Shown here in pieces: positions 1-18,020 of a stretch of 64,000 bases of DNA. This DNA is from Leptolyngbyaceae cyanobacterium (GTDB taxonomy: Bacteria > Cyanobacteriota > Cyanobacteriia > Phormidesmidales > Phormidesmidaceae). The notes below the pieces were generated by a model. It did not search any database, had not been told where the DNA came from, and worked only from the letters and a program-made list of their open reading frames with translations. A program made the translations under genes and the position numbers. Each line of letters opens with the position of its first letter. Within the stretch, counting starts at the first letter, position 1. Location of the stretch: contig CBDHHL010000039.1 of the NCBI GenBank assembly GCA_965263355.1, positions 18,821 through 82,820 on the forward strand. Direction: 5' to 3'.

Positions 1-314
1 CATCCATGGTCCAAAAGCTCCTGAGTTTCCTTTTCTAAGCGAGCTACAAAATCTTCTGGGCTTAAACACGCTCCTCCTTCCCCGTATCGATTGCCCGAAA
101 TCATGTCCTCAAAGGAAGCATCCAGCATTGAAGATGTGCCTTTGAGATCGGCACGGTTGAGTCTATCCTGTAGACTCCATATGGCGTCTTTGCCGTACTC
201 TTCAAGATAGAATTCTTTGAATTCTTCCAGGCTCATGAGTATAGTTGCAGGTGCGTCCGTAACTTCTGAATACTCAAAATATTTATCTTCTATTTTGCCA
301 ATATGTCGAGACAT
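1..314 (-). CDS. Hypothetical protein, runs off left end (MSRHIGKIEDKYFEYSEVTDAP...)
   Basis: ATG at 314 with AAGGAGA RBS; frame open to position 1; not in supplied ORF track. Confidence 0.7.
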   Translation of the reverse strand, partial: MSRHIGKIEDKYFEYSEVTDAPATILMSLEEFKEFYLEEYGKDAIWSLQDRLNRADLKGTSSMLDASFEDMISGNRYGEGGACLSPEDFVARLEKETQELLDHG

Positions 315-371
315 TTTCTCTCCTTAATGTTCTTCTTTCTTTTCTTGACTAGCTGCGATCTCCCATTTCAG

Positions 372-656
372 TCATTTATTCCCGTCAGCATCTTTAACAC
401 CCAGCGACTGATCAATCCCATGCATATGAGTTTTTAGAAAATCAAGCAAAGCATCCATAGCAGTGGGACAGCAATCAGACTCCTGTTCGAAACAGTGATA
501 CGTCCATGACCATCCAACCTCATGGCTAGGTTGTCGGATGTCTAAATCGGGAATAGCTTGAGAAATTCGTTTTACTAGCCACTCGTTTTGATTAGCTAGT
601 AATTTTTCTCTGTAAATCTCTTTTAACATTGTCAGCTCTTCTTCTTGAGTAGTCAC
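372..656 (-). CDS. Hypothetical protein
   Basis: ORF with GGAGGTGG RBS upstream. Confidence 0.7.
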   Translation of the reverse strand: MTTQEEELTMLKEIYREKLLANQNEWLVKRISQAIPDLDIRQPSHEVGWSWTYHCFEQESDCCPTAMDALLDFLKTHMHGIDQSLGVKDADGNK

Positions 657-706
657 TTAAACCACCTCCAAATATTCTTTTTCTTGACTAGCTGCGTCCA
701 GGGCAA

Positions 707-976
707 CTAGTCAACGTCGCTAGAGCCCTTTTCTGTCAAGCTTTTTATTGGCAATATGATTACCCCTGGACTATTATTGGACTCTTTTTCGAGCATTTTT
801 ACATACTCCAATATAGAGCCAAGTTGAGCGTTAGGGAGTTTCTTCTCCCTCTCGTCAATTCCTTGTCTGTTCTTTAGCCCCAGTGCTCTAGCGGCTTGCG
901 CCTTAACAGGGACTTCTGCCTCCCTCCACTCAATCAAAAGGTCTGGCAGCGCTTCGATAAACTCGCTTAATTTCAT
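707..976 (-). CDS. Putative HTH repressor/regulator
   Basis: KAQAARALGL helix-turn-helix-like segment; divergent from the early promoter cluster. Confidence 0.5.
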   Translation of the reverse strand: MKLSEFIEALPDLLIEWREAEVPVKAQAARALGLKNRQGIDEREKKLPNAQLGSILEYVKMLEKESNNSPGVIILPIKSLTEKGSSDVD

Positions 977-1000
977 GTCAAGTCTAGTATTTACATCTGG

Positions 1001-1029
1001 ACTATAGCAAAGCAAAATTAATTTTGCAA
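1001..1029 (-). promoter_or_regulatory. Leftward sigma70 promoter TTGCAA-17-TATAGT
   Basis: Near-consensus hexamers with 17-bp spacing upstream of 707..976. Confidence 0.6.
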
Positions 1030-1045
1030 ATAGTCAATAAATTAC

Positions 1046-1074
1046 TTGACACCTGAAAACAAAAAAGGCATACT
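1046..1074 (+). promoter_or_regulatory. Early promoter P1 TTGACA-17-CATACT
   Basis: Consensus -35 and 17-bp spacer; shares GTCAATAAATTACTTGACA with P2/P3. Confidence 0.75.
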
Positions 1075-1107
1075 TGTTAGTAACAAAGCGAAACGGAGTT
1101 ACTTAAG

Positions 1108-1383
1108 ATGGACATTAAGTTCTTAGGGCATGAGTCAAAAACAGGCAAAAATCAAGTTTTGATCAACGATTTCAGGTTTGAATTTAAGCTAACTCCCAAA
1201 GGGGCTGCATCCTTCAAGGATCTAGATGGAATGTTCCCTGAGAAGAAAGGAAAAGTTGTAGCCAGAACATACAGATCTTTTAGAACCTTGCTAGGCATTC
1301 AGCCTGGTTCCCCTTTGGCGAATAGCTTAGTTACGTGTACATCGTGCGCAAGAATTCACTACCCTTGGATGTTTAGCAATTAA
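1108..1383 (+). CDS. Early hypothetical protein
   Basis: ORF between promoter P1 and a terminator; CGGAG RBS. Confidence 0.7.
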   Translation: MDIKFLGHESKTGKNQVLINDFRFEFKLTPKGAASFKDLDGMFPEKKGKVVARTYRSFRTLLGIQPGSPLANSLVTCTSCARIHYPWMFSN

Positions 1384-1396
1384 GCGACACCATCTA

Positions 1397-1439
1397 AACC
1401 CCGCTAACCACAACACCCCGGTTAGCGGGGTTCTTTTTT
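1397..1439 (+). terminator. Intrinsic terminator, copy 1
   Basis: AACCCCGCTAACC/GGTTAGCGGGGTT 13-bp stem followed by T run. Confidence 0.85.
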
Positions 1440-1452
1440 GTCAATAAATTAC

Positions 1453-1481
1453 TTGACATTTGAAAATGGATCTCTTAGTAT
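1453..1481 (+). promoter_or_regulatory. Early promoter P2 TTGACA-17-TAGTAT
   Basis: Consensus hexamers; predicted start site coincides with ATG at 1488 (leaderless). Confidence 0.75.
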
Positions 1482-1487
1482 TAAGAC

Positions 1488-1892
1488 ATGTCGGGCAACC
1501 GATTTGTTTTTCCTTTCGGAGGTTTTGAGTTTATGGCTGTTGTTACTCGTCGTTCCGCTGAAATTCTTGCTCAGGCTACATTTGGCGACTTTTCCCGCTA
1601 TTGCTTGGCTGTTGTACTAACTAGATTCGATAAAATCGAATTTCAAGTTAGTGATGCAGAACGTCCTGACGACGACGGAATGCCTAGCGTTATTCGACAG
1701 ACTGAAACTATCCAGTCCGCTTTAGAGGGGATGGAAGATGTCGAATGCTTTTCTCAGAGACCATGCACTGGGGATTTTATTGTAACTCTGGGGAAAACTC
1801 CAGCAGTCTATCTTGAGGAAGGCCGTGCTCGATGCATTCGCACAGGCGAGGAATTCTTGGTTGGTAGCTTTCATGTCATCAAAGGGTTTTGA
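1488..1892 (+). CDS. Early hypothetical protein
   Basis: ORF flanked by duplicated terminator/promoter modules. Confidence 0.7.
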   Translation: MSGNRFVFPFGGFEFMAVVTRRSAEILAQATFGDFSRYCLAVVLTRFDKIEFQVSDAERPDDDGMPSVIRQTETIQSALEGMEDVECFSQRPCTGDFIVTLGKTPAVYLEEGRARCIRTGEEFLVGSFHVIKGF

Positions 1893-1909
1893 TGGCCTTA
1901 CTCATTAGT

Positions 1910-1949
1910 AACCCCGCTAACCACACCCCGGTTAGCGGGGTTCTTTTTT
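1910..1949 (+). terminator. Intrinsic terminator, copy 2
   Basis: Same stem as 1397..1439 with a shorter loop. Confidence 0.85.
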
Positions 1950-1962
1950 GTCAATAAATTAC

Positions 1963-1991
1963 TTGACACCTGAAAAGCTATCGTTTAGCAT
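1963..1991 (+). promoter_or_regulatory. Early promoter P3 TTGACA-17-TAGCAT
   Basis: Consensus -35 and 17-bp spacer. Confidence 0.75.
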
Positions 1992-2015
1992 TTGAAGTGT
2001 AATTGAGGTCGAGCA

Positions 2016-2510
2016 ATGGCAAAAGTATTTAAGGTCAAAACACAAATTCCGCCTAGGAAACTTGGTCTAGTGGGCGATAGATCGTGGGAAGAATCCGAAA
2101 ATCTTTTCTATGCGCAAGAGCTTATCCAAGCTAAAGACCAAAAAGAAGCCATGGCGATCGCGGCTAAGTATGGAGCAATAGTTTCAGTGGAGGAAACAAC
2201 CATCAAGCCGAAGTCAAAAAGGCAGCAAGCCATAGAAAGCCTACTGTCTGTCAAGTCGGCACAAGAAAAAACATGGCACGAATTCGTATGCGAGTATGTA
2301 TTCCTTATGACTGGGCTTAAGAAAAATAGAGATCTTGTAAGCGGCTACCAGCTGAAGAAAAATAAGAAAGGATATTCAATTCGTTGGGACGGAAGAGACA
2401 TCATGCTAAATGATATGGCTGCTGACGTTGCTTATTCTTTCTGTTTGCGCCATGGATTATCTTACTTTGTCAGGGAAGCCGAAGATTACAGGATGGATTT
2501 ATTAGCCTGA
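2016..2510 (+). CDS. Early hypothetical protein
   Basis: ORF with GAGG RBS downstream of P3. Confidence 0.75.
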   Translation: MAKVFKVKTQIPPRKLGLVGDRSWEESENLFYAQELIQAKDQKEAMAIAAKYGAIVSVEETTIKPKSKRQQAIESLLSVKSAQEKTWHEFVCEYVFLMTGLKKNRDLVSGYQLKKNKKGYSIRWDGRDIMLNDMAADVAYSFCLRHGLSYFVREAEDYRMDLLA

Positions 2511-2539
2511 TTTTGCCTGATTTTTTGTCAAGAAAATAC

Positions 2540-2568
2540 TTGACACTTAAAAAGAGATTCGCTATATT
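2540..2568 (+). promoter_or_regulatory. Promoter P4 TTGACA-17-TATATT
   Basis: Near-perfect sigma70 consensus upstream of a long ORF-free region. Confidence 0.8.
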
Positions 2569-2574
2569 AGAAAT

Positions 2575-2962
2575 GTGAGAGACGGGATGCAACCCCGCAG
2601 TCAAAGCCACTGGCGAGGGGAGATACGCATTTTAACTCTTGGGGTTAGTCAAGATAAACGACGGGTTTTTACCCTGATATAGCGGAAGTAACCGCCTACT
2701 CATCGCGGTACCACACCAAACGACGGTGTCGGTCGTAAAGTTCGGAAGGAGCCGAAGGTGGGAGGACAAACAAAATGACTAACTAAAAGAACAGCAAGCC
2801 CGACTCATACCCGTTGAGCGCTTCGGTGCAATAGGCGACACATGTTAGGGCAAACTGGGAACCCATTAGCGGGCACACCGAGCTATATAATCGCGTGTCA
2901 TCCTGGCGAGCTGAGATGCAATCAGTAAGGGCTTTAGCGGTGTTGAGCCTTATCAATGCCGC
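2575..2962 (+). ncRNA. Candidate large structured ncRNA (~390 nt), family not recognised
   Basis: Follows P4; no long ORF; many hairpins including C(UUCG)G; long-range helix 2637-2651/2776-2790; 3' hairpin 2938-2962. Confidence 0.7.
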
Positions 2963-2984
2963 CTAGAATCTTTGAGGAAAACCA

Positions 2985-3050
2985 ATGAATAATCTTTATA
3001 TCATTGGCTACCTTTTGCTTCTCTTCACAGCAAATGTAGCCTTAATGTGA
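2985..3050 (+). CDS. 21-aa hydrophobic peptide MNNLYIIGYLLLLFTANVALM
   Basis: GAGGA RBS; one transmembrane-length hydrophobic stretch. Confidence 0.45.
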   Translation: MNNLYIIGYLLLLFTANVALM

Positions 3051-3060
3051 GCCTTCAAAT

Positions 3061-3095
3061 CGCCCCAGGCATGGCGTTAAACTGCCTGTGATGTT
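3061..3095 (+). promoter_or_regulatory. Repeated 5' leader element, copy 1 (predicted H-type pseudoknot)
   Basis: 34 nt identical to 3410..3443; lies upstream of an RBS. Confidence 0.6.
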
Positions 3096-3115
3096 TTATT
3101 AACGGAGAAAAGACC

Positions 3116-3403
3116 ATGGGCCAGTATTTTAGACCTGTTCACGTGCCGACAAATACGGCAGTTACAAACTTTCCATTTGCGTGCAATGGAGGCCTCACTT
3201 GGATTCCAAAGGTATTTTATTTCACAGATGAAGAGTTACTTGAAGAAACCGAGATTGTGGCTAAAGCTTATGGATGGGATGTCAATGACATTGTTTGGGT
3301 TGGCGATTATGGGCAAGTTGTGTCCTTGAAAAACGGTGTTCGTGATAATGGCGATGGAGAGAATCACGACAATCCATTAAAAACCTTGACTTGGGGAGAT
3401 TAA
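3116..3403 (+). CDS. Hypothetical phage protein (MGQYF..., WVGDY motif)
   Basis: ORF with GGAG RBS. Confidence 0.75.
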   Translation: MGQYFRPVHVPTNTAVTNFPFACNGGLTWIPKVFYFTDEELLEETEIVAKAYGWDVNDIVWVGDYGQVVSLKNGVRDNGDGENHDNPLKTLTWGD

Positions 3404-3408
3404 TTTGC

Positions 3409-3443
3409 TGCCCCAGGCATGGCGTTAAACTGCCTGTGATGTT
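3409..3443 (+). promoter_or_regulatory. Repeated 5' leader element, copy 2
   Basis: Direct repeat of 3062..3095. Confidence 0.6.
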
Positions 3444-3459
3444 GATAACGGAGAATGAA

Positions 3460-3666
3460 ATGAATAGAAACGATGTGACCAGGGAGGAGTATCTGGCCCT
3501 CGCTGGTCAGGTTGCCAACGGATTGCATGCATGCACTGGGTTTCTCAATGAGCCTGAGGACATAGCCGAATCCGTTCTAGAACGGACTGATGCGTTGGTT
3601 CAAAAGCTCAATGAGCGGTTTGCTCAAGAAGATTTTGAACCAAGTAGTGGCTATTATCGGCTTTAG
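3460..3666 (+). CDS. Hypothetical protein
   Basis: ATG at 3460 after GGAG RBS (shorter than the track ORF). Confidence 0.65.
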   Translation: MNRNDVTREEYLALAGQVANGLHACTGFLNEPEDIAESVLERTDALVQKLNERFAQEDFEPSSGYYRL

Positions 3667-3708
3667 GCTTTGATAGACTCCCCTGATTTCAGACGATTTC
3701 AACTGTAA

Positions 3709-3736
3709 AAATAACCGTCAAATAACCGTCAAATAA
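3709..3736 (+). repeat. 11-bp tandem repeat AAATAACCGTC x2.5
   Basis: Seen directly upstream of the start codon at 3739. Confidence 0.8.
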
Positions 3737-3738
3737 GA

Positions 3739-4176
3739 ATGAAAAAACTAATCACAGCGATCGCTTTCACCCTGTCCATGGCCACCACGGCCAACGCGTT
3801 ACCTGTCTGCTACAGCATGACTGAAGACGGAGACATTACTGACCTGTCCCATATGTGTCCAGCATCTGAGCAGCCAGTAACGATCGCGGCCAGACGATCA
3901 CCTGAACTACCCGCAGTGGAAGTTGCCACAGAATCGCCTAAAGCCACCTTCCAAGTCCGTCGCATTAACAGAACCAATTGGACAGCTACTGGGACGGTTA
4001 ATTTTTCAAGGGCTGCTGAACCAGGCGATCGCGTAGTTCCGTATTTACAGTATGAAGATGGGCGGGAAGCATCATTGCCCGCAGTAACATATGAGCGTGG
4101 GAACCGCAGAACGGAGATTACGTTTAATGTGGTTCCTGGCACTAGCACTAGTGAGGTAGACGGCGGTGTACGTTAA
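3739..4176 (+). CDS. Secreted protein with signal peptide
   Basis: MKKLITAIAFTLSMATTANA signal; CY..T.DG...DLSHMC motif resembling cyanobacterial exported proteins. Confidence 0.7.
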   Translation: MKKLITAIAFTLSMATTANALPVCYSMTEDGDITDLSHMCPASEQPVTIAARRSPELPAVEVATESPKATFQVRRINRTNWTATGTVNFSRAAEPGDRVVPYLQYEDGREASLPAVTYERGNRRTEITFNVVPGTSTSEVDGGVR

Positions 4177-4444
4177 ACAAAAGTTAATCACAGTAGTTGG
4201 ATGCACTCCTGGTGAGGCCGATGATTTCATTCAAGAATTTGGTTTAAGCAAAACTGAGATTGCTTTAGATTTAATGCTTTGCGGAATGTCTATAGACGAT
4301 GCTAAAGCAGCGGTAAACATAGATATTGACAATCACTTGTCTAACTCATTTATCAGGGCAATTATTTTGCAAAGTTACAATCAAAAACAAGACCAAAAAC
4401 TGGAATCTCTTAAAGATGCTTTGGCGAAACTAGAAGGTATTTAG
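4166..4444 (+). CDS. Hypothetical protein
   Basis: ORF overlapping the upstream stop; start uncertain. Confidence 0.55.
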   Translation: MYVKQKLITVVGCTPGEADDFIQEFGLSKTEIALDLMLCGMSIDDAKAAVNIDIDNHLSNSFIRAIILQSYNQKQDQKLESLKDALAKLEGI

Positions 4445-4493
4445 TCGGATGAAGACAGCATATTCTCAGTTAATGTTTAAGGAAATAAAGGAA

Positions 4494-5000
4494 ATGAATA
4501 AGAATGCTTTAATCGCGATCGCTTGCACAGTCGGTGTCATTGGCTTAACTGTGGGTACCTTAGTCACACAAAAAGTCCAGGCAGACGCTAGACGAGAAAA
4601 AATCCATCAGGCTTGGTTAGAACGCCAAGCAAATCCTGAACAGTATCAAGCAGAGATAGCGGCTAAGGTTGAAGCTACTAAACAGGAACAGGACAAAAAA
4701 GGTTTTGACGCTGCTGAGATTCAATCCTTTAGGGAAACAGTTGCAGCTGTCGATCCGAATGGTCTTGTTATCAAGGATATCCGGGTTGATACAGTGCGCC
4801 CAGTGGTTTCGATTACCGGCACTGCTGCATTGTTTGCCCAAAGCGACTTGCAGTTAAAAGAAATCGCTATGAATCTTCAGAGTATTTCTGATAAAACTTG
4901 CGGTTGCACATCGCTGGTAGTTTTCAAAACGCAAGCTGGTCAAACTGTGGCTAAGTCTGGCATGTTTGGAGGTGTTGATATTGTCGCCAAGAATCGATAA
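4494..5000 (+). CDS. Membrane-anchored hypothetical protein
   Basis: N-terminal hydrophobic helix; AAGGA RBS. Confidence 0.7.
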   Translation: MNKNALIAIACTVGVIGLTVGTLVTQKVQADARREKIHQAWLERQANPEQYQAEIAAKVEATKQEQDKKGFDAAEIQSFRETVAAVDPNGLVIKDIRVDTVRPVVSITGTAALFAQSDLQLKEIAMNLQSISDKTCGCTSLVVFKTQAGQTVAKSGMFGGVDIVAKNR

Positions 5001-5404
5001 TGGCAATCACTAATTTCGGCTTGTACCCGACTTCTATAGTTTTCCAGCTACCCACTGGCATAACTGATGACTTTGAGGGTGGCTCCGCTGATGGCCTAAC
5101 TGCTGTCACGGTGCCATGCCGGGTTAAAGTAGCGACTCAAAATAGAGCAAGCCAGTTCAACACTAGTGCGTTCGAAGGACCCAATAATAATAGTGTGATG
5201 CTACTTGGTTGGTGTGGCACTGAAGCAGCACCAACTGAGTATTTATTCCCTAATAATCTTAGGGGATGGCCTGAACCACCGACTGGGACGATGGAATTAA
5301 ACGGCATTAGCGGCAAAGTTGAAGTGCTTATTCAACCGTTCGCGATCGCTGATGCAGCCCCTGGCATTGGCGAACGGTTTATTGCACGATGGACGGCTAA
5401 TTGA
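5000..5404 (+). CDS. Putative head-tail joining protein
   Basis: Size, beta-rich composition and position ahead of the tail genes. Confidence 0.4.
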   Translation: MAITNFGLYPTSIVFQLPTGITDDFEGGSADGLTAVTVPCRVKVATQNRASQFNTSAFEGPNNNSVMLLGWCGTEAAPTEYLFPNNLRGWPEPPTGTMELNGISGKVEVLIQPFAIADAAPGIGERFIARWTAN

Positions 5405-5427
5405 GCATACAAATTTCTTGGCCTAAT

Positions 5428-5781
5428 TCAATCATTGAATCCCTGCTCCCAAACTTGTTCAGAGATTTTATACGGCTCGCCTTGATGCCTAGCCCATACG
5501 AGGACTAGGCCTTTTTGCATGGAAACTCGTTGCACTTCACTAGGCTGTAATTCCCGACTTAATCGCTCATTGGCACTGACTAACTTGGCAGCTTTTCTAA
5601 ACAACGCTAAACGACTGCTGCCTAATAAATGAAGATGCAAGATATTGACCATAAGATCCATGGTCCCGGTCTGAGTATTGACCCCAAAGTAATCTTTTAA
5701 CTCTGAAAACCGCTTCAAGGTTTTTCTAGACAAATGACCGGCTCTTATTTCGCCAGTTTTTTCAGGCAAGTTGCCAGCCAT
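5428..5781 (-). CDS. Hypothetical protein, possible DNA-binding regulator
   Basis: Basic ORF on the opposite strand inside the structural module. Confidence 0.55.
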   Translation of the reverse strand: MAGNLPEKTGEIRAGHLSRKTLKRFSELKDYFGVNTQTGTMDLMVNILHLHLLGSSRLALFRKAAKLVSANERLSRELQPSEVQRVSMQKGLVLVWARHQGEPYKISEQVWEQGFND

Positions 5782-5845
5782 GAAAAAAATTCCAAGATAC
5801 TTGGAAATTTTAACATATTGTCAAAAATGACTGTAGGCTGCAATT

Positions 5846-6238
5846 ATGGCAGTCCTAAATTTTGACAGAACAGCGTTTAATCGTGGCCTTGATAGGGGGC
5901 TACGAGGTTTTGCTGTAGATATGGATAGGTTGCTAACTGAATCAATTGAGCAACCGTTGTATCCATGGCCAGGGTTCACTAAACGGAAGTCTGGTGAAGA
6001 AGTTTTTAGTCCTAGAAATATTGTGGACTTGGGAGAATTTAGGGACTCGCAGCAATATAGTTTCCCTTCCCAATTGACTATTTTATTTGAATGGACTGCT
6101 CAACATTCAGTATTTGTATTTAACGGGTTCACGACTCGTAGCGGCTCAACGTATCCCGCTCGTAATCCAGTATTACAGACAGTAGAACAATATGACTTGG
6201 CTGCTGTCCTGGCTCAGCAATTACGGGAGGTGTTCTGA
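5846..6238 (+). CDS. Putative neck/tail-completion protein
   Basis: WP..TKRKSGE.V.SPRNIVDLG..RDSQ motif typical of cyanophage neck proteins; position. Confidence 0.55.
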   Translation: MAVLNFDRTAFNRGLDRGLRGFAVDMDRLLTESIEQPLYPWPGFTKRKSGEEVFSPRNIVDLGEFRDSQQYSFPSQLTILFEWTAQHSVFVFNGFTTRSGSTYPARNPVLQTVEQYDLAAVLAQQLREVF

Positions 6239-6681
6239 TGCCTGTAATTAGCATTGCCCAGATTAGAGACCAAGTTCAGACCCTAATGACTCCCTACCTG
6301 GGAACTCGTACGTATGTTACAGCTACGGGTACTCAGACATTGCCGTCGTTGGTGTTGGACTATGGCAAAACTCAAGATGTTGGTGGCATTCAATGGCAGA
6401 GACAGCCTAAGAGTCTAGAAGGCTTGGAGGTTGTTATTACGCCTCAGCAGCAAGCAACGCTTACACAGTTTTATTCTCAACAGCTTGGCCTGGAATATAC
6501 GACCACCATCACGCTGAAACAGTGGGACGAAGCGGGCACTGTAGCGGCTGCTGCTGCTGCGTTGATTAGTGGTATGGGTTATCTGTTTCAAGCTGGAGTG
6601 TCGGTTAAGACGCCAAGGGATTCAAGGCTCGACACGATTGAGTCTGAAAGTTTTCGAATTGTTCATCAAATCAGGAGTTAA
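6238..6681 (+). CDS. Putative tail terminator protein
   Basis: Directly upstream of the tail tube gene; ~150 aa. Confidence 0.45.
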   Translation: MPVISIAQIRDQVQTLMTPYLGTRTYVTATGTQTLPSLVLDYGKTQDVGGIQWQRQPKSLEGLEVVITPQQQATLTQFYSQQLGLEYTTTITLKQWDEAGTVAAAAAALISGMGYLFQAGVSVKTPRDSRLDTIESESFRIVHQIRS

Positions 6682-6686
6682 TCACT

Positions 6687-7397
6687 ATGCCAGGTGCTGG
6701 TAACAATCCGCTATTAATGCCCGATTCGCGGGAAACGAAAATCTTTGCAGCCTTAGTAACAAATAATACGAGCGTGCCCAGTCGGATTGCGCCGATCACT
6801 TTAACACTGGGTGCTGCTTTTACGGCTACAACTACGGGAACCGCATCAACGATGACTGCGAGCGCTGCTCCTACAGTGCCGATTATCGCGGGAACAGTGT
6901 TGCGGTTTGTCGATGCAGCTGGATCTTATATGGCCATTGTCACAACTGACAGCAACGATGGCAGCAATATTGAGCTGACGGCTAATGAAGATATCCCCAA
7001 CGGCGCAGTTGCCAATTGGCCCGGTGAGGTTGATTTGATTACGTCTCATAACCTGGGGGTCCAGACCACGCTGAATAATGTTTCGACATATCAGCACATT
7101 GGCTCTGGCGAATCTTCCCGTCAGGATACGACTAGAACTTTCACGATCGCGGCTAACTTATCTGAGTATTCCAGCGGCCAACGGATTTTACGCTATGCCG
7201 TGAATGCTGAGAACGATGTTTACCTTGAAGTTCAAGACCCGAACCCTGATGCCGTGACGTTTAGTACTCCACCGTTATCGTTTGGCGTTGCTCGAATGTC
7301 GGATGGTTCTAAGGATGGCCAGAACGGCAACAAGTTGGCACTGTCTCTTAATGGCACGTTCTCCGGTGCTGTGACTGAACTTGAGGCTGCTGCTTAG
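6687..7397 (+). CDS. Major tail tube protein
   Basis: Position upstream of chaperones and tape measure; Thr/Ala/Gly rich; C-terminal LSLNGTFSG. Confidence 0.65.
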   Translation: MPGAGNNPLLMPDSRETKIFAALVTNNTSVPSRIAPITLTLGAAFTATTTGTASTMTASAAPTVPIIAGTVLRFVDAAGSYMAIVTTDSNDGSNIELTANEDIPNGAVANWPGEVDLITSHNLGVQTTLNNVSTYQHIGSGESSRQDTTRTFTIAANLSEYSSGQRILRYAVNAENDVYLEVQDPNPDAVTFSTPPLSFGVARMSDGSKDGQNGNKLALSLNGTFSGAVTELEAAA

Positions 7398-7654
7398 TGA
7401 AGATTGAAGCCTTGCAAAACCAGCATATTTTTATGCTTGGCTGCACAGTTGAAGGGTCAAGGCTAAGGGCATTACTTAGCTTTACTAAGCCTAAAATGTG
7501 TGCTGGTTTTGCAGGGCAAGAGGCGTTACTGGTTGAACCGTATCGGCAGAACAATACTGAAATTGTTGTTGTGATGCCGAGTGACTTAGAAGCAATTTAT
7601 ACATACTTAGACTTGGAGGTTGTTCGTTGTGACTCAGACCTTATGGGAAATTAA
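7397..7654 (+). CDS. Hypothetical tail-region protein
   Basis: Translationally coupled ORF. Confidence 0.55.
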   Translation: MKIEALQNQHIFMLGCTVEGSRLRALLSFTKPKMCAGFAGQEALLVEPYRQNNTEIVVVMPSDLEAIYTYLDLEVVRCDSDLMGN

Positions 7655-8132
7655 ATCAGTCGATCGCGTGGTTCGGGTGCCTGGGATGGCCCCGGTTACT
7701 GTTCCGGTTTATCCGTCCTTATTAGTGCCAGAAGAAGAATATTTCCAGAGTCTTAGGGATAACGAAGAGATTAGCGATAAGCGATTGATGGACCTGTTAG
7801 TTGCGTTTTGCCTTAAACATCGTGGCGTACTTGGCGATGATGTCCCTACTGAAAAGATTATTGCAAATACTCCTAGACCATTGGCTGAAGCTTTGTTTAG
7901 CTTATTTATCTATGGCTTACCAGGGAAGCGAGTAAATCCAACTGAGTATATTTACGATCCTGAAACTGAGTTGGGAAACGACGAAACTCAGAGCCAATCG
8001 ACTGGGGGAAACTCTGCTGGCAACTCCAGCGCTGGTATCCAGGCTGCGAATATTTCAGACCTACCCAGTTTAGAAACTGTCCGTCAAAACTCGCCTTGGA
8101 TGCCGCCAGAGTCTGGCGCGATGACCGCATAG
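7620..8132 (+). CDS. Tail assembly chaperone (gpG-like)
   Basis: Precedes tape measure; contains in-phase G GGA AAC slippery heptamers. Confidence 0.7.
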   Translation: MFVVTQTLWEIKSVDRVVRVPGMAPVTVPVYPSLLVPEEEYFQSLRDNEEISDKRLMDLLVAFCLKHRGVLGDDVPTEKIIANTPRPLAEALFSLFIYGLPGKRVNPTEYIYDPETELGNDETQSQSTGGNSAGNSSAGIQAANISDLPSLETVRQNSPWMPPESGAMTA

Positions 8133-8395
8133 CTGAGCTAGCCGAGGAAGCCACGGCGACTAGTGAGGTTGCGGCATTAATCGCACGGGCGAATTTTAAG
8201 AACGCTGAAGACGCCAGCGCGACTGATTTTAATCGTTGGGGATTAACCCAACGCAGGAATGAGCTTGCTAAGACTATCCCCCCTGAAGCCGCAAAAATCT
8301 ATGTGAAGTTGCTGAAGAAAAGCCGAGTGCCAGATTGGGTCAGGGCGATTATGTCTGAACGCGATATGACGTTATTAGCAGGAAAGGTTGAATAG
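7973..8395 (+). CDS. Tail assembly chaperone gpGT extension, reached by -1 frameshift
   Basis: The -1 frame is open from 7970 to 8395 and encodes EPIDWGKLCWQLQRWYP... Confidence 0.7.
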   Translation, partial: GKRRNSEPIDWGKLCWQLQRWYPGCEYFRPTQFRNCPSKLALDAARVWRDDRIAELAEEATATSEVAALIARANFKNAEDASATDFNRWGLTQRRNELAKTIPPEAAKIYVKLLKKSRVPDWVRAIMSERDMTLLAGKVE

Positions 8396-11300
8396 TGGTT
8401 CAAGCTGGTTCGGTTGAATTCGCAGTTGAATTTTCGGAGTCGAGTATTACGGCTGCGATCGCTGACTTGCGGACACGATTCAACCGGGTTGATGACCTTG
8501 CTATTGATGTCAGGCTGAATGATGAGACTGTTATTCGTGGCATTAGCGACATTAGACAGCAGCTTAGTAATGCTGATAATGTTCGGCTGGATGTCAACCT
8601 TGACGATTCAATTACGAGAGAGATAACCCAGCTTAGACAACAGCTAGAAGCTATCAACAGAACTCAGGCAAGTGTTGACTTTGGGCGCAGTGCTGCTCAA
8701 GCTGACGCGATCGCTCAGTCACTGACTCAGTTAAGAGCCCAATCAAATATTCCAGTAACTGTCAATACGAATGCTGCCCAGCGTAATGTTCAGGAGTTAA
8801 GGCGTGGGTTTGCAACGGTTCAACAGGCTGTTGATGGATTGAGTCGTGAGAGGATCAACCTAGAAGTTAATGCTCGAAATATTCAAAATCAGATTGCGGC
8901 GGTTGATGCCAGAATTCAACAACTGCGTGACAAAGAGATTCAGATTCGAGCAAATTCTAGAGCAGCTGAAGCAACAATTCGGAATTTAGACGCTCAAGTT
9001 ACTGAACTTCAGCGCAATCGTTCTGATATCCAGCTAAAGATTGATGCTCGCACTGAAGAAATAAATACTATCGAGCAAACGATAGAACGGCTTAGAAATA
9101 CTCGAATAAATTTAGAGCTAAACCCATCCACCAGTAACCAAGCACTTAATTTGTTGGATCAGCGAATCCAGCAATTAAGCAACGAGCGAATTAAGCTAGA
9201 AACCGATAGCACGTTACAGAATCAAATTCTGCAGATAGAAGATAGGATCGGCAGAATTCAATCACGACGACTTCGGTTAGAGGCTGATACACGCCAAGCT
9301 GAACCACGCATTAGGCAGATTCAGACTCAGCTCGGTACGCTTGACGATAAGCGAGTTCGATTAAATGTCGATGCCGACAACGCAACTGAACAGATCCGCA
9401 CTCTTGATAGACGGTTAGAGGCATTAGGGGGCGGGAACGCTAGGCAGGCATTACGGCAAATTAACAGGGAATTAAGACAATTAAGTTCTCCCACAATATC
9501 GCCCAATCTAGATCTTAGTGGCATCCGGAATAGTAGCGGAATTGTTCAAGGAATTTTCCAGGGGATTGGCCAAAGAGTTTTTGATACTCTAGCTAACGCT
9601 ATTGGAGGGGGCATCAGAGCAGGGCTTTCAACTGTTCAAAATGCAGTTGGCTTTGAGCAGGCATTAGTTACGTTTAGCGCTCGTGCGGGTGGAGCTGAGG
9701 AAGCGATCGCGGCAGTTACTGAAGAGTCTAGACGATTAGGAATTGAAACCAGTAAAACGCCTGAAGAAGTGGCGCGCATCGCTACTCGAATGGTCGAATT
9801 AGGCGGTGAGGTGACTGAGGTTGGTGATAATGTTGCAGGCGTTGTAGCTGCACTAGAAGGAACTGGTTTTACTAATATTGATGCGACCGCCAAAGCTATT
9901 CAGGCAGGAACAAATATTTTTAACGAGTCTGCCGATGCTTTGGCCGATAAAATCACGCTACTTGCCAATACAACAGCAGTTACATCGGCTGAAGGCATTT
10001 TGCAGGCATTTGGTAAAGCGGGCGGTTCGTTTGTCGATGCTGATGTTAGCGCATCGACATTACTGGCAACATTTGCTAAATTCTCCGAGACAGCCACTCC
10101 TGAAGTGGCCGCGACTGCAACCAGGAATGCCCTGGATGGTTTAAGAGGTAGGACTGATGTAGCAAGAGAAGCATTAGACAGGCTAAACGTTTCATTCTTT
10201 GATAATCAAGGCCCGACCGCGTTTACGGACACATTAGTAGATCTTAGAGATGCACTTGAGCCGCTAAGTGAAGAAGATCGATTTACAGCTTTACAAGATA
10301 TTTTTGGCGGCAGAAGTGCTTCACAGATAGGATTGTTATTGCAAGGTTTAGACGATGTAATCGCAAAAACTGATGAACTTGAACAGGGTTTCGGCGCATC
10401 CGGTGAAGCTGCAGACAATCTAAATCAGGGTGTTGCTGCGGCGGTTAATCGACTGCAAGGAACCCTGACCACTGCCGGAACCGATCTTGGTTTGGCACTG
10501 ACACCAGGTATAGAGGCGGGCGTTAGAACATTAACCGCGTCAATTAATGCTGCCATTGAAGACGGTGATGCTTTTGGGGACACAGCGGCCTCGGTTGAAG
10601 CATTATTGGCGGCTGTTGACGGGTCTGAAGTTGTCGACGTTTTATCAGCTAGCCTTCGTAGCTTATTTGATTCGGTTGATGCGGGGGCAGCCAGCCTGAT
10701 TGATTCGCTATCTAATATATTGAGTGATCCTGAAAATCTCGACAGATTTGGCCAATCAATTGAAAATCTTGGGACTGTCCTGGGTGGAACCTTAAGAATT
10801 GCGGGCGTTGCTGCTGAGGCGTTTACTGTACTATCAGCAGCATATTCTGACACGATAGGCGAAGGCCCAGCTGAGGCAATTGGGCAATTTTCATTAATTC
10901 TTGAAGGGATTGTCCCGGTTGCAACTCAGGTTAGAGATTCGATATCCGGTTTAGTAAATCCGGTCACTGAATTTTTAGATCGCTTTTCCTTGGTTGGTGA
11001 TTTAATAAATCAGTTTGGCACCTTAGGCCCAGCTATTGGCGCGATAGGCCTAGCCTTTACCGGGGTCACTAATACAGTTCAGTCATTGCGGGAACAGTTA
11101 GGGTTTTTAACAGCTGAGGCAGTCCAGCCAGCTGTAATTACCGATGCTGGTGCTGAGGGTGTTCAAGCGTTAGCGAATGCCGGAAGTAGATTGTCTTCTG
11201 ATGCTGGCCAAAATAGCAGAGAGGAACAGTTGGCAGCAGCACAAGCATTGGCTGGCCAGTTGGGAGATATTGAAGCCAATGGCGTTGAATTATCTGAACG

Positions 11301-12867
11301 GAGAAAAGAACAGCTCAGGGAAGAATCGTTGCAGGCATTAGAGGATACTCAATCGGCTGCCCTGGCAAGATTAGCAGCTCAAGAAGCTGAACAGATTAAT
11401 GATATTCGTCAGGCTCAATTGGCAGCTGGCCCTGAAGATCCAACAGCCGAAAGCAATGCAGATTCGGCTATTCGTGATATTCAAGCTGACTTTGCCCAGC
11501 AACGAATCCAGATTGCTCAAGATGAAATCGATCAAATTAATCAACTAAGAGCCGATGGCATTATTACAGCTGAGGAAGCTGAGCAACGGTTGGTCACTGC
11601 TAAACAGGAGTCTGCCGAATTGTCAGTGCAGGCGATTGAGCAGCAGATCGCAGCTGAACAAGCCGCTGCTGATGCTGTTAGAGAACGGATTGAAGAGGAA
11701 TTATCAGCCAGAGAGCGGTTAAATGCCCTGGCATCCGAACAAACAAATTTGCAGTTTGAGGTTGATAATTCTGGTTTAGAAAATCAATTATCAATATCCC
11801 AAGCGTTAGCTAATGTTGATGCTGCGAGAATTGATTCAGCGGCTCAATTAATTAGTGCTCAATTGGCTCAAGCAGAGGCAACTGAAAACTTTGCAGCAGT
11901 TGAGGAAGCCAGAGATCGGCTATTGCTTAATCAGTTGCAATCAATTCGAGCAGGCACTCAAGCCCAACAGCAACAGATTGCTATCCAACGGCAAATAGTA
12001 ACGCTTGATGGTCAGAGACAAATAACGTTAGCTCAGATTGCCCGTGATGAAGCCCAGATTGCAGTAGATAGAGCCCGTTCGAGCCAGGGAATATCGACAG
12101 AGGAGCTTAATGGGCTTCAGTCGATTGTTGAACTTAGGGCGCAAGGAATTGAATCTGCTAGGGCAAATTTAGATGTTCAACTGAGTATTTTAGACGCTCA
12201 AGAAGAAGAACAAAGCATCTTAGCTGAAACCGCTGAAGCTGAGGCAATCAGAGAGCGGAGATTGGAGGGCATTGAATCATTAATTGAACGCCAAACTGAT
12301 TTACTAGACGAGCAAAAAGACTTAGAAAGTGATATTGCCGATGAGACAGAACGACGGCAGAGTGCTATTGATTCGATTGTTTCGTCATTAAGCGGCTTAG
12401 AAGATGTTGGTGCTGAGCAGGCATTAGAAGACTTGAACCAGCTTGAAGATAATTTACGTTCAGCCAGACGAGCAGGCGCAATTGATAGTGAAACTGCGTC
12501 ACAGTTGCAGTCAGGAATTAATCAGGCCCAGCGGCTAGCACGTTCCGGCGACGGATTCACAGTAGAGGAAGCTTTTAATTTTTCAGATAGCCAAAATCCA
12601 TTTGCTCAAAGCATTTTGGATAGTTTAGGGCTTGGTGGAGTTAATGCATTTGCTGAAGCTCAGCAAGAAATTTTATTAGCCGATACTCAGATAGAACAGC
12701 TGACAACCAAGTTAGAGGAAGTTAGAGACGCTGTTGCTGCTTTGCCAGAGACCTTGCCCACTGGCATAGAAAATCTAACCGTATCGACTCCTGACCCGAT
12801 CGCTGATGCTGCTCAAATTACAGCCGATCTAACCCGGCAACAACAGATTGCGGAGGGAGTTATCTAA
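8395..12867 (+). CDS. Tail tape measure protein
   Basis: 1490 aa, helical and Ala-rich; TP901-type core (FEQALVTF...RRLGIETSKTPEEVA). Confidence 0.9.
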   Translation: MVQAGSVEFAVEFSESSITAAIADLRTRFNRVDDLAIDVRLNDETVIRGISDIRQQLSNADNVRLDVNLDDSITREITQLRQQLEAINRTQASVDFGRSAAQADAIAQSLTQLRAQSNIPVTVNTNAAQRNVQELRRGFATVQQAVDGLSRERINLEVNARNIQNQIAAVDARIQQLRDKEIQIRANSRAAEATIRNLDAQVTELQRNRSDIQLKIDARTEEINTIEQTIERLRNTRINLELNPSTSNQALNLLDQRIQQLSNERIKLETDSTLQNQILQIEDRIGRIQSRRLRLEADTRQAEPRIRQIQTQLGTLDDKRVRLNVDADNATEQIRTLDRRLEALGGGNARQALRQINRELRQLSSPTISPNLDLSGIRNSSGIVQGIFQGIGQRVFDTLANAIGGGIRAGLSTVQNAVGFEQALVTFSARAGGAEEAIAAVTEESRRLGIETSKTPEEVARIATRMVELGGEVTEVGDNVAGVVAALEGTGFTNIDATAKAIQAGTNIFNESADALADKITLLANTTAVTSAEGILQAFGKAGGSFVDADVSASTLLATFAKFSETATPEVAATATRNALDGLRGRTDVAREALDRLNVSFFDNQGPTAFTDTLVDLRDALEPLSEEDRFTALQDIFGGRSASQIGLLLQGLDDVIAKTDELEQGFGASGEAADNLNQGVAAAVNRLQGTLTTAGTDLGLALTPGIEAGVRTLTASINAAIEDGDAFGDTAASVEALLAAVDGSEVVDVLSASLRSLFDSVDAGAASLIDSLSNILSDPENLDRFGQSIENLGTVLGGTLRIAGVAAEAFTVLSAAYSDTIGEGPAEAIGQFSLILEGIVPVATQVRDSISGLVNPVTEFLDRFSLVGDLINQFGTLGPAIGAIGLAFTGVTNTVQSLREQLGFLTAEAVQPAVITDAGAEGVQALANAGSRLSSDAGQNSREEQLAAAQALAGQLGDIEANGVELSERRKEQLREESLQALEDTQSAALARLAAQEAEQINDIRQAQLAAGPEDPTAESNADSAIRDIQADFAQQRIQIAQDEIDQINQLRADGIITAEEAEQRLVTAKQESAELSVQAIEQQIAAEQAAADAVRERIEEELSARERLNALASEQTNLQFEVDNSGLENQLSISQALANVDAARIDSAAQLISAQLAQAEATENFAAVEEARDRLLLNQLQSIRAGTQAQQQQIAIQRQIVTLDGQRQITLAQIARDEAQIAVDRARSSQGISTEELNGLQSIVELRAQGIESARANLDVQLSILDAQEEEQSILAETAEAEAIRERRLEGIESLIERQTDLLDEQKDLESDIADETERRQSAIDSIVSSLSGLEDVGAEQALEDLNQLEDNLRSARRAGAIDSETASQLQSGINQAQRLARSGDGFTVEEAFNFSDSQNPFAQSILDSLGLGGVNAFAEAQQEILLADTQIEQLTTKLEEVRDAVAALPETLPTGIENLTVSTPDPIADAAQITADLTRQQQIAEGVI

Positions 12868-13358
12868 TGGCCCTGCCTACCACTACAGAACGGGGAATCG
12901 TTCTAAATCATGCCGATTACAGCCTAGCTATCACTTTGTTTGGCCGTTACCCTGGTCAATTCCCACGGGTTGATGGTCGTTATAAAGGGATTGTTCGTAG
13001 TAAACGGGGGGCAGCAGCTAGGACGGGGGCTTTAACTAGATTTGCTATTTGGAATTTTGTTGGTTGCCTAACCCTTGACCAGCAAGAGATTTTAATCCGA
13101 ATGGAAGCTGCTTATTGGGGCAACCCTGGGCCATGGATTATTTATGACTATACAAATTATTGGTCTGAAAATGGGACGACAAACACTAGAGCGATCGCGC
13201 CCAATAGCACAGTAGCAGCTGACGCTAATACAATTTGCTACTATCCCCAATGGCAAGCCGAGCCAACAAACCAACGAGGGTTTGAATACAGTGAGAAAGC
13301 TGATGGAGTTCGTGTAGCTCAGTTTCAGTTCACAGAATCGGGGGTTATCGTGGCATGA
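12867..13358 (+). CDS. Putative distal tail protein
   Basis: Immediately follows tape measure; C-terminal FQFTE. Confidence 0.55.
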   Translation: MALPTTTERGIVLNHADYSLAITLFGRYPGQFPRVDGRYKGIVRSKRGAAARTGALTRFAIWNFVGCLTLDQQEILIRMEAAYWGNPGPWIIYDYTNYWSENGTTNTRAIAPNSTVAADANTICYYPQWQAEPTNQRGFEYSEKADGVRVAQFQFTESGVIVA

Positions 13359-15358
13359 CCTCTTTCACTATTGATGCTCAAGATAGGGACTGGACAGCAA
13401 GCCTCGAAATTTTAGACGCTAATCGAGCCGTGATTAGTGGCCCGCATGATATTTCTGATGCGTTGATTAGCGTCGATATTGACTTTTCCGAACTGAGATC
13501 GGGGAACAGGCTAAACGGTTGGCTGGCATGGGAAGGCAGCATTGTATTAAGCCCAGAATTGTCCACAACAGTTAGTCTTGATAATCGCGATACTGCCTCT
13601 AACCCGTCAGGTGCTGAAGTGCTGGCTATGGGAAACCGGATCACACTGAGCATGTGGACGGGGGCAAATTATGAAAGATTTTGGCCACCGTTTTATATCT
13701 TGAGGGAAGCATCCCCTAGGATAGAAATTCCTACAAGCGATTCTCAAGCTCAGATTACGATTGACTTAGGGGATCTTGGCAAATCACTAGACTTATTTAC
13801 CCCAGAGAATAATTATTCAGGAATTACCCAGGGAACAACCACAACGCCCACAACGTTAATTCGTAATATCGCAACTCAGATAGGCATCCCAACATCATCA
13901 GATACGATCTCGGGCGGTTATTCAGTCAATACAGCCGTCCAGAAAAAATCTACCCGGTCAACAGTGCGTGAGATTGGGGAAATAGCGGCAGCTCAAAAGT
14001 ATGTTGTTTGGCTTGATGCTGCTGAAGAATTAAGGCTCACTCCAGCTGACTTTACACTCAAAACAGCACCAGATTTTAGCCTAACTATCGGCATTGGAGG
14101 AGACGAAGTTGGCGAGAACGGATGGGAACCCGTCAATCTTGAAGAACGACCGCCGGGAGAATTAACAGTAACGGGCGGTTCAGACCTCGCTCAAGAGATT
14201 GAAAATCCTAGCGTAATCGTTCGCACTGTTCCCGGTCCAGGCTATACGTCTCTGACCAGCACTGAGACTAAAACGATAACGCCAGTTGGGGGCGCGCCTC
14301 AGACAGTAATTACGTATGAAGAACGCCAAGCTGAATTACAGATACAGCCCAGAGTTCTCACTATGGATAACTCTGGCGTTGTGCCGACGCTGCTGACAGA
14401 CACCGACAATACGAGCAATGGTCTGCAAGATTCTGAAGATAGTTCGATTACCCATCGATATAACGGAATCACTAAACGACTGACTGAAACAGTTGAGTTG
14501 ATTCGTAAAGCACGGGGGCTTAGCGGTGGCGATGCGTTTAGAGAGGAAGAAAATAGCTCAGCACTGACACTACTTGACAATAGTCAAACGACCACGACCT
14601 ACACTTACGACAATATTTTAGGCGTAGTCAGTTCAAGAACTATCACAGAACGTCGGCCATGGTGCTTGTGGGAATGGGGCGAAGTTACACCTACCAACTA
14701 TGATTTGAATCGCTTTTTAGAACGTGATTATCTAACCCAAACGACTACCTGGACTAGAGTGCTGGACGTTAGCGGAGATCCTACGATTGAGGCGTGGCGT
14801 GTTGAACAAGTTACTCAGCAGCCGAGGGGGGTGGTTTTTAAGAATTACACGGGGGCTAACCCTGAGACCCTGGTGAACAATCCAGATCCTGATCTGACCT
14901 TCACACTGCAAGCCAGTGACGGTTCAACCCGACCGCCGGATATTGAATATCAGGAAAGTATTTATACAGAAGAACACCAAGAATTTACGGGGTCAGTTAC
15001 GGTCCAGCCAATCTCTGGGAATGCCCATAAATGGAAGGAGGGGGCAATTCGGGTTAATGCTGATGTGATTGTGAGCGATATTCAATGTAATGACTTAGCA
15101 GCATGGGCCGCAAAATGGCAACATGGATTGAGCCTGGGTCGTTCATTTATTGGAGCAATCCCAACAGAATTATTTACTGCCTTTGATCCGGTATCGAGGG
15201 TTGATGTGACTGTCGATGGGGCCGTTGATGCTTACTTTTTGAATGGTTTTAGTATCTCGTCAAATTTAACTGAGACTCTATTTGGGTGTAACTTTGGGTT
15301 GATTGGTCAGGTTGGGGCAACGCCAGATATAATTACTTCGTCAATAAATATCCTATGA
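13355..15358 (+). CDS. Putative tail hub/baseplate protein
   Basis: Position; Thr-rich beta composition. Confidence 0.55.
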   Translation: MTSFTIDAQDRDWTASLEILDANRAVISGPHDISDALISVDIDFSELRSGNRLNGWLAWEGSIVLSPELSTTVSLDNRDTASNPSGAEVLAMGNRITLSMWTGANYERFWPPFYILREASPRIEIPTSDSQAQITIDLGDLGKSLDLFTPENNYSGITQGTTTTPTTLIRNIATQIGIPTSSDTISGGYSVNTAVQKKSTRSTVREIGEIAAAQKYVVWLDAAEELRLTPADFTLKTAPDFSLTIGIGGDEVGENGWEPVNLEERPPGELTVTGGSDLAQEIENPSVIVRTVPGPGYTSLTSTETKTITPVGGAPQTVITYEERQAELQIQPRVLTMDNSGVVPTLLTDTDNTSNGLQDSEDSSITHRYNGITKRLTETVELIRKARGLSGGDAFREEENSSALTLLDNSQTTTTYTYDNILGVVSSRTITERRPWCLWEWGEVTPTNYDLNRFLERDYLTQTTTWTRVLDVSGDPTIEAWRVEQVTQQPRGVVFKNYTGANPETLVNNPDPDLTFTLQASDGSTRPPDIEYQESIYTEEHQEFTGSVTVQPISGNAHKWKEGAIRVNADVIVSDIQCNDLAAWAAKWQHGLSLGRSFIGAIPTELFTAFDPVSRVDVTVDGAVDAYFLNGFSISSNLTETLFGCNFGLIGQVGATPDIITSSINIL

Positions 15359-16353
15359 ACGCTCTAACCCAAAGGCTAGCCAGCCGGAATAAGCAACGCA
15401 CGACTCAACGCCTTCAAGCACAAATGGCTGAGGCAAAAATCGGCGCTGCCACTATTACTGGCACGCTTACGGGCAGCAGTGCTGAAGGAATCACACTTAG
15501 AACAGAGTCGGGGGGTTTTCTCACAGTCCCTAGATCTACTGCTCAAAAACTTTCACGGCAACCAGCGATCGGGCAGTCTCGGCAGTTATCGACCGGGGGG
15601 CAGCTAGAGCTATTAGGAAGCAGCACAGAAACGATTAACCAGCCTGTCAGTCAAACACAACCGCAAGTCAGATATCCTCTTAGGCCGCCTACTCAGGGAG
15701 CAGACTTTGGGGCCAATGGCGATTTGTGGCTTGAGCAAACTGGCATTCAGGGCAACTTTAACGAAGCCAATGCTTATGTTTGGATACAAAAAATTGGCCA
15801 GTTTGTGAAGTTGGCTTCCGGCGGAGTAGTTGTTACATTCGAGCCCAACGACCCGATCACGTCAGGGACAGTAAACGGCCAGCTGCACTACAACACGACT
15901 AATTCGTCAGTATTTTTTTATGACCAAGCTGCTGATATATGGCGACCTGTTGGTGGGGGGGGTGGGGGCGCAACTATTAACTATGTTGCAGGGCCGCCCC
16001 CTACGCCAGCTCCACCAGGTACCGTTGATGGGGAAGGCCATCACGATACTGTGGTTGATCGTTTGTGGACTTATGATCTAGCCAATACAACTTGGCGTGC
16101 TGCTGGTTCGAAGAATTTTTTCCAGGGGGTGCCTAGCGCAGCGGGGCCGACATCTTTTGTCAGGGGGGATCGGGTAACTCTGTATCAGACTAGCGGTAAT
16201 ACCGTTACTCCGTGCGATTACATTTGGTCCGACCAACAATCAGATTGGCTATTAGTCAGCTGTTGTCCTGGCTGTGCCGAAGACTTTTTTAATAGTCGTT
16301 GCGATGACGATGAAGGTTCTGACGGCGGCAGTTGCACACCACTTCCACCATAA
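15355..16353 (+). CDS. Putative tail fibre/minor tail protein
   Basis: Repeated G.L.YNT....F.YD....W units, Gly/Pro linkers and Cys-rich C-terminus. Confidence 0.55.
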   Translation: MNALTQRLASRNKQRTTQRLQAQMAEAKIGAATITGTLTGSSAEGITLRTESGGFLTVPRSTAQKLSRQPAIGQSRQLSTGGQLELLGSSTETINQPVSQTQPQVRYPLRPPTQGADFGANGDLWLEQTGIQGNFNEANAYVWIQKIGQFVKLASGGVVVTFEPNDPITSGTVNGQLHYNTTNSSVFFYDQAADIWRPVGGGGGGATINYVAGPPPTPAPPGTVDGEGHHDTVVDRLWTYDLANTTWRAAGSKNFFQGVPSAAGPTSFVRGDRVTLYQTSGNTVTPCDYIWSDQQSDWLLVSCCPGCAEDFFNSRCDDDEGSDGGSCTPLPP

Positions 16354-16357
16354 TCTT

Positions 16358-17257: not shown

Positions 17258-17279
17258 AAATCGTATCGCTGGATGCTTT

Positions 17280-17959: not shown

Positions 17960-18020
17960 TATTGATTAGACCCCACCCTAGCACAGTTTAACTTGCGTTG
18001 TTGAAGACCCCTCTTCCAAC

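Follow-up and report, generated by a model that had tools for sequence, protein, structure and literature searches.

A long non-coding stretch behind a repeated promoter of a cyanophage-like genome, tentatively read as the 5' leader of a phage operon

In phage lambda, the unit pR'-6S RNA-tR' provides the late operon with a long untranslated leader. Morons of temperate phages are units of a promoter, a gene and a terminator, and the type I toxin mRNAs of the hok/sok and ibs/sib systems carry long folded untranslated regions. The large structured RNAs GOLLD and ROOL are often located near tRNA islands in phages or prophages; many GOLLD members exceed 800 nt, and the numbering of ROOL runs past 460 (PMC12286853).

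An earlier note on the DNA described here had proposed a phage-encoded RNA of about 390 nt, comparable in complexity to GOLLD and ROOL and made from its own promoter, within the window (the whole stretch of 64,000 nucleotides that was analysed). A predicted non-coding RNA with a strong promoter of its own is well supported by the sequence. With a probability of roughly 0.42, we tentatively favour reading it as the long untranslated 5' leader of an operon of the phage rather than as a free-standing ornate RNA. If this is correct, the locus holds an ordinary though unusually long regulatory leader, and the value of the result lies in the annotation of a highly divergent phage lineage.

The window represents a temperate, highly divergent cyanophage-like genome. 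It contains a tape-measure protein gene (8395-12867) and genes for a DNA polymerase exonuclease domain, a D5-type primase, an SF1 helicase, a large serine recombinase, a lysozyme, an M15 peptidase and a DNA methylase, with the replication genes at 32-41 kb and the integrase at 44.8-46.3 kb. A scan of 30 window proteins against PHROGs revealed no match, and ARAGORN detected no tRNA or tmRNA gene in the 64 kb. Also present are an IS200/IS605 unit, with TnpA at 20385-20783 and TnpB at 19219-20424, and an IS607-like unit, with a serine recombinase at 61344-61967 and a TnpB-like gene at 59867-61288. The closest TnpB relatives, with at most 74% identity, belong to filamentous and pleurocapsalean cyanobacteria (such as Limnoraphis, Lyngbya and Xenococcaceae), and the host of the phage-like genome is therefore likely cyanobacterial. 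The adjacent genes at 54397-55551, one for a circularly permuted YpsA SLOG-family protein and the other for a polynucleotide kinase 3'-phosphatase-like HAD protein, may serve nucleic-acid repair or counter-defence. The most stable folds of the window were found at 20541-21840 and 58241-58631 (GC-corrected z down to -3.8); their source are perfect 23-bp hairpins at 20850-20901, beside the IS200 TnpA gene, and at 58260-58316, in the space separating convergent genes. Short hairpins are densest in the AT-rich stretches 23200-23900 and 38546-39233, with as many as 28 per 391 nt, the latter stretch corresponding to a 448-nt gap upstream of the primase gene that may be a replication origin.

Inspection of the region upstream of the stretch confirmed the consensus promoter described before, a sigma-70-type site TTGACA-17-TATATT on the + strand (2540-2568) with 11 of 12 consensus positions. 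It is the sole consensus-like site within 2000-3600 and the best within 1-18500. Its -35 hexamer is overlapped by a palindromic operator-like element (2527-2545, + strand), the fourth copy of a repeat. This 19-nt palindrome, GTCAAKAAAWTACTTGACA, has the -35 as its right half. It is found four times in the window and always on the + strand (0 expected), with copies starting at 1033, 1440, 1950 and 2527; a blastn comparison within the window agrees. The palindrome is likely a repressor operator. Copies one to three lie ~0-30 nt upstream of the start codons of small ORFs (1108, 1488 and 2016), and two of the cassette promoters are directly preceded by the same strong terminator, a hairpin plus T-run (1398-1431 and 1910-1942). 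The region 1033-2568 is a row of self-contained expression cassettes. In the second one (promoter 1453-1490), only ~6 nt separate the -10 from the ATG at 1488, suggesting a leaderless mRNA. The fourth cassette has the best -10 of all four promoters; unlike in its three sisters, ~410 nt without a usable frame come next.

The untranslated RNA predicted from this promoter covers ~410 nt of the + strand (2575-2984), from a start placed ~7 nt past the -10 to the start of a 21-codon ORF, and consists of 57% purines. The gap in which it lies (2511-3115, 605 nt) is the longest in the window. The GC content of the element is 0.519 compared to a window mean of 0.443 (rank 3 of 491 windows), and this gap is the sole long one that exceeds the genome mean, the other long gaps showing values of 0.385-0.437. 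The stretch had been described as free of any meaningful ORF, and this held: none of the six frames stays open through 2569-2985, and each carries 5-8 stops of mixed type. Since the stop types are mixed in every frame, no recoding rescues an ORF, and hidden coding under another genetic code was ruled out. Pfam returned nothing for the short ORFs of 35, 45 and 57 aa, and the 57-aa ORF has no homologue among 5.8 billion proteins; on these grounds a remnant gene was rejected. A CsrB-like GGA sponge was likewise rejected (8 GGA motifs, with ~9 estimated from base composition), as was antisense pairing to the rest of the genome (matches of at most 13 nt, E at least 0.48). With respect to an independent small-RNA gene, the stretch has its own promoter and lacks an intrinsic terminator of its own. 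A simple scan of the + strand over 2569-4900 revealed no terminator-like site, though canonical terminators are used in this genome.

All pairings and hairpins listed in the earlier note are present in the sequence. The statement that the stretch is packed with them stands for a modest excess of short hairpins and for one domain of ~150 nt, but not for the global fold, the long helices and the repeats, which are near chance. On the + strand the minimum free energy (MFE) is -126 kcal/mol compared to -117.1 ± 5.4 for dinucleotide shuffles (z -1.66; 10 of 150 shuffles as good), whereas the - strand gives a z of +0.09. The z of the ensemble diversity is -1.19 for the + strand (sharper) and +1.69 for the - strand (more diffuse). 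Among 982 windows of the same size from this genome, with GC regressed, the + strand fold takes rank 313 (z -0.45). Its folding energy, proposed before as a means of refutation, is hence barely better than that of shuffled sequence and ordinary for this genome. The longest Watson-Crick helix, at 8 bp, is about what shuffles give (7.6; equalled in 91 of 200). There are 9 repeated 7-mers versus 4.3 (11 of 200 shuffles with as many) and 3 repeated 8-mers versus 1.0 (17 of 200). The motifs GATGCAA and CTGGCGAG, singled out because each occurs twice, are not enriched in the window, and motif repeats are altogether near chance. A 15-nt direct repeat at 2610 and 2903, identical at 13 of 15 positions, is mildly unusual; beside it, two hairpins at opposite ends of the stretch carry near-identical AUGCAA loops.

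Local structure stood modestly above chance. Hairpins of 4 Watson-Crick bp number 15 compared to 7.3 ± 3.2 in shuffles (4 of 200 as high), and a count of at least 15 is found in 58 of 979 genome windows and in 3 of 143 GC-rich ones. The central branched domain on the + strand (2640-2787; z -2.07, 6 of 200 shuffles; helix probabilities 0.5-0.97) is built from a 9-bp closing helix (2643-2651/2776-2784) around the hairpins GGGU/ACCC and GCGG/CCGC and a Y-shaped arm, and is the only part with the same fold in every context. Its reverse complement, with a z of -1.93, scores nearly as well. Four of five subdomains (z +0.39 to -0.95) are not better than shuffles. The pairing AAAGCC/GGCTTT, which had been taken to close the ends, gives way to other helices once 2575-3115 is folded, and the same applies to 2610-2631/2889-2910. 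In these models the global architecture is unstable, as it depends on the chosen 3' end. The 10-bp hairpin at 2937-2962 (+ strand) has a pair probability of 0.99 and no T-run after it; judged from the model, it may mark a 3' end or act as a barrier to processing, but is not a canonical terminator. Pairings found by hand in a GC-rich stretch of 400 nt are not evidence of an ornate fold, because windows of the same size from this genome fold equally well once GC is allowed for.

Downstream of the stretch lies ORF21, a wholly hydrophobic ORF of 21 codons (2985-3050, + strand) with a GAGGA ribosome-binding site (2974-2978) 6 nt upstream. Its start codon is part of a predicted hairpin (2982-2988/3001-3007), which is kept in the MFE and centroid folds. 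In a variant contig the start of ORF21 is retained, and its first five codons differ by one synonymous change and two conservative ones. In the runs, more contigs cover the ORF21 segment than the sequence around it, and the summed depth is higher there; the segment has differing flanks on either side and looks like a small mobile module. A 34-nt element with the hairpin CAGGCA-11-TGCCTG (3062-3095, + strand) is positioned directly before the ribosome-binding site of ORF95, and an exact second copy (3410-3443) before that of the ORF at 3460-3666. The repeat is predicted to fold as a 6-bp hairpin with an 11-nt loop, and may function as a translational operator or mark a processing site. Summed contig depth in the runs is several-fold higher at 3421-3450. 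ORF95 (3116-3403, + strand) is the first sizeable gene of the transcription unit and is conserved in a handful of relatives.

Variants were taken from short contigs in three DNA-type runs of one study, and the figures cover the differences listed. Some contigs over the element (2538-2722, 2645-2800) are identical to the window sequence. One haplotype over 2524-2674 shows 9 changes and a 5-nt loss at 2562 (~6%). On the basis of these sequences, its divergence is similar to that of the gene ORF164, in which 24 of 442 positions differ in one contig. Among the differences listed, three could be placed: the substitution 2888 T>C, the loss of 3 nt at 2720 and changes at 2802-2805. Each of them falls on unpaired positions of the MFE fold. 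The 3-nt loss lies inside the AAACGAC loop and represents all depth there in two of the three runs, so that these 3 nt are missing from the main haplotype of these runs. As the loss removes part of ACGAC, it speaks against an ACGAC/GTCGT pseudoknot, and the crossing pairings previously thought to indicate pseudoknots are at chance level.

We interpret these features as a leader as follows. The fourth cassette promoter would fire at ~2575, and ~410 nt of GC-rich, purine-rich non-coding RNA would be transcribed. Without a terminator, transcription would run into ORF21, ORF95 and the genes beyond. The leader would act in cis, with the 10-bp stem at 2937-2962 and the stem burying the ORF21 start setting the rate of downstream translation and the stability of the message, and cleavage at the repeated 34-nt hairpin elements may release it. 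Start, end and read-through of the transcript are all predicted from the sequence.

No terminator precedes ORF21 or ORF95, and a long 5' leader is therefore the best reading. The stretch lies on the same strand as the downstream ORFs and is contiguous with them, with no intervening promoter or terminator. The leader reading is further supported by the promoter, which matches the consensus at 11 of 12 positions and belongs to one of four operator-repeat copies, and by its sisters, which lie ~0-30 nt from their start codons and are separated by canonical terminators. The good ribosome-binding site of ORF21, its hairpin-held start and the conservative nature of its variant changes point in the same direction. 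So do the properties of the gap, as the longest in the window and the sole long one above the mean GC, the better and sharper fold of the + strand compared to the - strand, a hairpin density twice that of shuffles, and the three placed variants in unpaired positions.

Several points argue against a leader. A length of 410 nt is unusually long for a phage operon whose neighbour cassettes have almost none; cyanobacterial terminators may escape a simple scan; and a separate RNA could end at, or be protected by, the modelled 10-bp hairpin (2937-2962). A high GC content in a non-coding gap is a criterion of searches for structured-RNA genes (PMC8723152, PMC6429828). The ORF95 alignment matched in 1 of 401, 0 of 144, 0 of 61 and 1 of 90 genomes, the single genome matched being G251. 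The distant homologue in G251 (34% identity) has only ~100 nt upstream and no similar RNA there, and as it lacks the long upstream gap, the leader is not an obligatory companion of ORF95. Contig breaks at ~2971-2978, just upstream of ORF21, suggest that leader and ORF21 are separable modules in related genomes.

Such breaks also speak for a second explanation, according to which the stretch is a transcribed spacer without function, either a hypervariable recombination slot or a decayed remnant between modules, and the promoter merely serves the downstream ORFs. Contigs of related strains break at five places (~2521, 2558-2568, 2800-2806, 2971-2978 and 3048-3054). One variant contig continues past 2800 with a ~20-nt motif that has 2 mismatches to 59762-59781, a site at the end of the IS607-like unit that lies just past the stop of its TnpB-like gene; the motif recurs at 32070-32089. 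At the sequence level this suggests that some genomes carry an insertion sequence within the element. The IS607-like insertion sequence may be active in the population. In one weakly anchored contig, with 30 letters on the shorter side, 2587-2862 (276 nt) is replaced by 24 letters. Each of these hints is weak, and together they point to a variable, dispensable slot. A functionless spacer would also agree with the ordinary thermodynamics of the fold and with the ~6% divergence of the 2524-2674 haplotype, close to that of ORF164. However, 400 nt of junk directly behind the strongest promoter are rare in phage genomes, the GC content is well above the genome mean, opposite to the other long gaps, and the hairpin density is enriched with no trace of a former gene found. 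We consider a spacer unlikely; it ranks directly behind the leader.

More doubtful is a stand-alone structured RNA of ~390 nt as the payload of the fourth cassette, which would end or be processed near 2937-2962, act in trans as a scaffold, decoy or ribozyme and represent a new class. It would occupy the slot in which the sister cassettes carry a protein gene, and the long GC-rich gap is of the kind selected in structured-RNA searches (PMC8723152, PMC6429828). The hairpin excess, the reproducible branched domain, the strand asymmetry of the fold and the near-identical AUGCAA loops at both ends beside the 13/15 direct repeat also favour it.

The absence of a match to any Rfam 15 family is in line with a stand-alone RNA. 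A cmscan of the whole window against Rfam 15 at gathering scores gave no match, and lowering the threshold to E = 10 for 2400-3150 gave four unrelated weak matches, the best of which (E 0.37) was a yeast snoRNA outside the element. The stretch could not be matched to tmRNA, RNase P, group I/II introns or omega-RNA in the earlier note; Rfam 15, and for tmRNA also ARAGORN, gave nothing for these either, and Rfam 15 also gave no match for HEARO/omega RNA, riboswitches or phi29 pRNA. The Rfam check thus left the proposed novelty in place.

The search for relatives, in contrast, counts against a stand-alone RNA, as no homologue was found in the collections scanned, and hence no covariation. The blastn search for homologues that had been suggested revealed none among phages, plasmids and 401 cyanobacterial genomes: comparison of the region with phages and plasmids was empty or at chance level, and 2560-3120 gave four short matches in the 401 genomes (E ~0.003) that were chance on inspection. 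A covariance model (R1) built on the central domain 2640-2787 found nothing in 151 genomes and matches only itself within the window. Two RNA patterns gave zero matches and one chance match in viral contigs, the promoter/operator pattern gave 24 single chance matches there, and a 23-nt hairpin probe detected one unrelated metagenome contig (L025). ORF164, the upstream gene, has two protein homologues (94% and 79% identity; P0001, P0002), and ORF95 has four (96, 81, 63 and 47% identity; P0004-P0007). The ORF164 alignment was empty or at chance level in genome and metagenome contigs, tblastn of ORF95 found none in phages and plasmids, Atlas look-ups of both gave viral hypothetical clusters only, or nothing, the flanking proteins gave nothing beyond chance in viral contigs, and a 667-aa tail protein had none in 401 genomes of the order.

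Further points against a stand-alone RNA are that its fold is no outlier for this genome, that the long-range helices change with the 3' end and four of five subdomains equal shuffles, that no terminator is present, and that motif repeats and the longest helix are near chance. The window holds no tRNA island, unlike GOLLD and ROOL loci (PMC12286853). The variant contigs suggest that the region tolerates the end of an insertion sequence joined at 2800, and perhaps a 276-nt replacement. Slightly less credible again is the specific version in which the fourth early cassette yields a free-standing RNA of ~390 nt, with the core 2640-2787 and twin AUGCAA end hairpins, as the founding member of a new phage-RNA class. 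Such an RNA could be made early in infection or from the prophage and act as a decoy or scaffold, for example against host defence. If a stand-alone RNA were real, it would be a large structured RNA from cyanophages, where no known large class has been placed, and an early-expressed RNA to test against host defences.

An arrangement similar to type I toxin-antitoxin systems, in which the folded RNA is the untranslated part of a toxin mRNA and silences the 21-residue peptide until processed, appears improbable. ORF21 is short and hydrophobic, has a good ribosome-binding site and a start predicted to be sequestered, lies downstream of a long structured RNA and is found in more contigs and at higher depth than its surroundings. 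However, no convincing antisense promoter was detected (the best site on the - strand matches 8 of 12 positions, and none passes a standard scan), further genes follow ORF21 without a terminator, and no homologous peptide is present in the four cyanobacterial loci with short DNA matches. A site acting at the DNA level, such as a replication origin, packaging or recombination site, is highly improbable: the central inverted repeat scores equally on both strands and direct repeats are found at both ends, but the replication genes, the integrase and the AT-rich hairpin-dense gaps (23.2-23.9 kb and 38.5-39.2 kb) lie elsewhere, no terminase gene was recognisable nearby in Pfam and PHROGs scans, and the stretch is GC-rich, directly behind a promoter and on the better-folding strand.

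Compared with the known systems, the element resembles GOLLD and ROOL in being non-coding, encoded by a phage, rich in hairpins and without a known protein partner. The phage context of these RNAs is found here (tape measure, lysozyme, primase), but not their tRNA islands. The element matches neither Rfam model at any threshold tried, and with ~390 nt it is well below GOLLD in size (PMC12286853). It also differs in having no homologues or covariation found, an unexceptional fold and no closing terminator. Marginal folding energy, an architecture dependent on the 3' end and the missing terminator do not support the large multi-domain RNA of GOLLD/ROOL type that had been proposed.

With type I toxin mRNAs the locus shares a long folded RNA before a very short hydrophobic ORF with a start that is predicted to be base-paired; it differs in that no antisense promoter was found and that ORF21 heads an operon instead of standing at the end of a short mRNA. 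As in morons, the element belongs to a series: it is the last of four consecutive units with a common promoter/operator, and canonical terminators close two of these units. Its own payload, however, is non-coding, and its unit has no terminator here. The lambda late leader differs from the favoured leader in several respects. No terminator ends the leader here (scan of 2569-4900), and scans of ORFs in Pfam and of 30 proteins in PHROGs recognised no Q-like antiterminator. The promoter type found here also drives three small upstream genes. Lambda 6S RNA has about half the length of the element. What the two share is a strong sigma-70 promoter and, behind it, a long untranslated RNA heading a long one-directional gene block; downstream of the 2540 promoter, this block includes the tail tape-measure gene.
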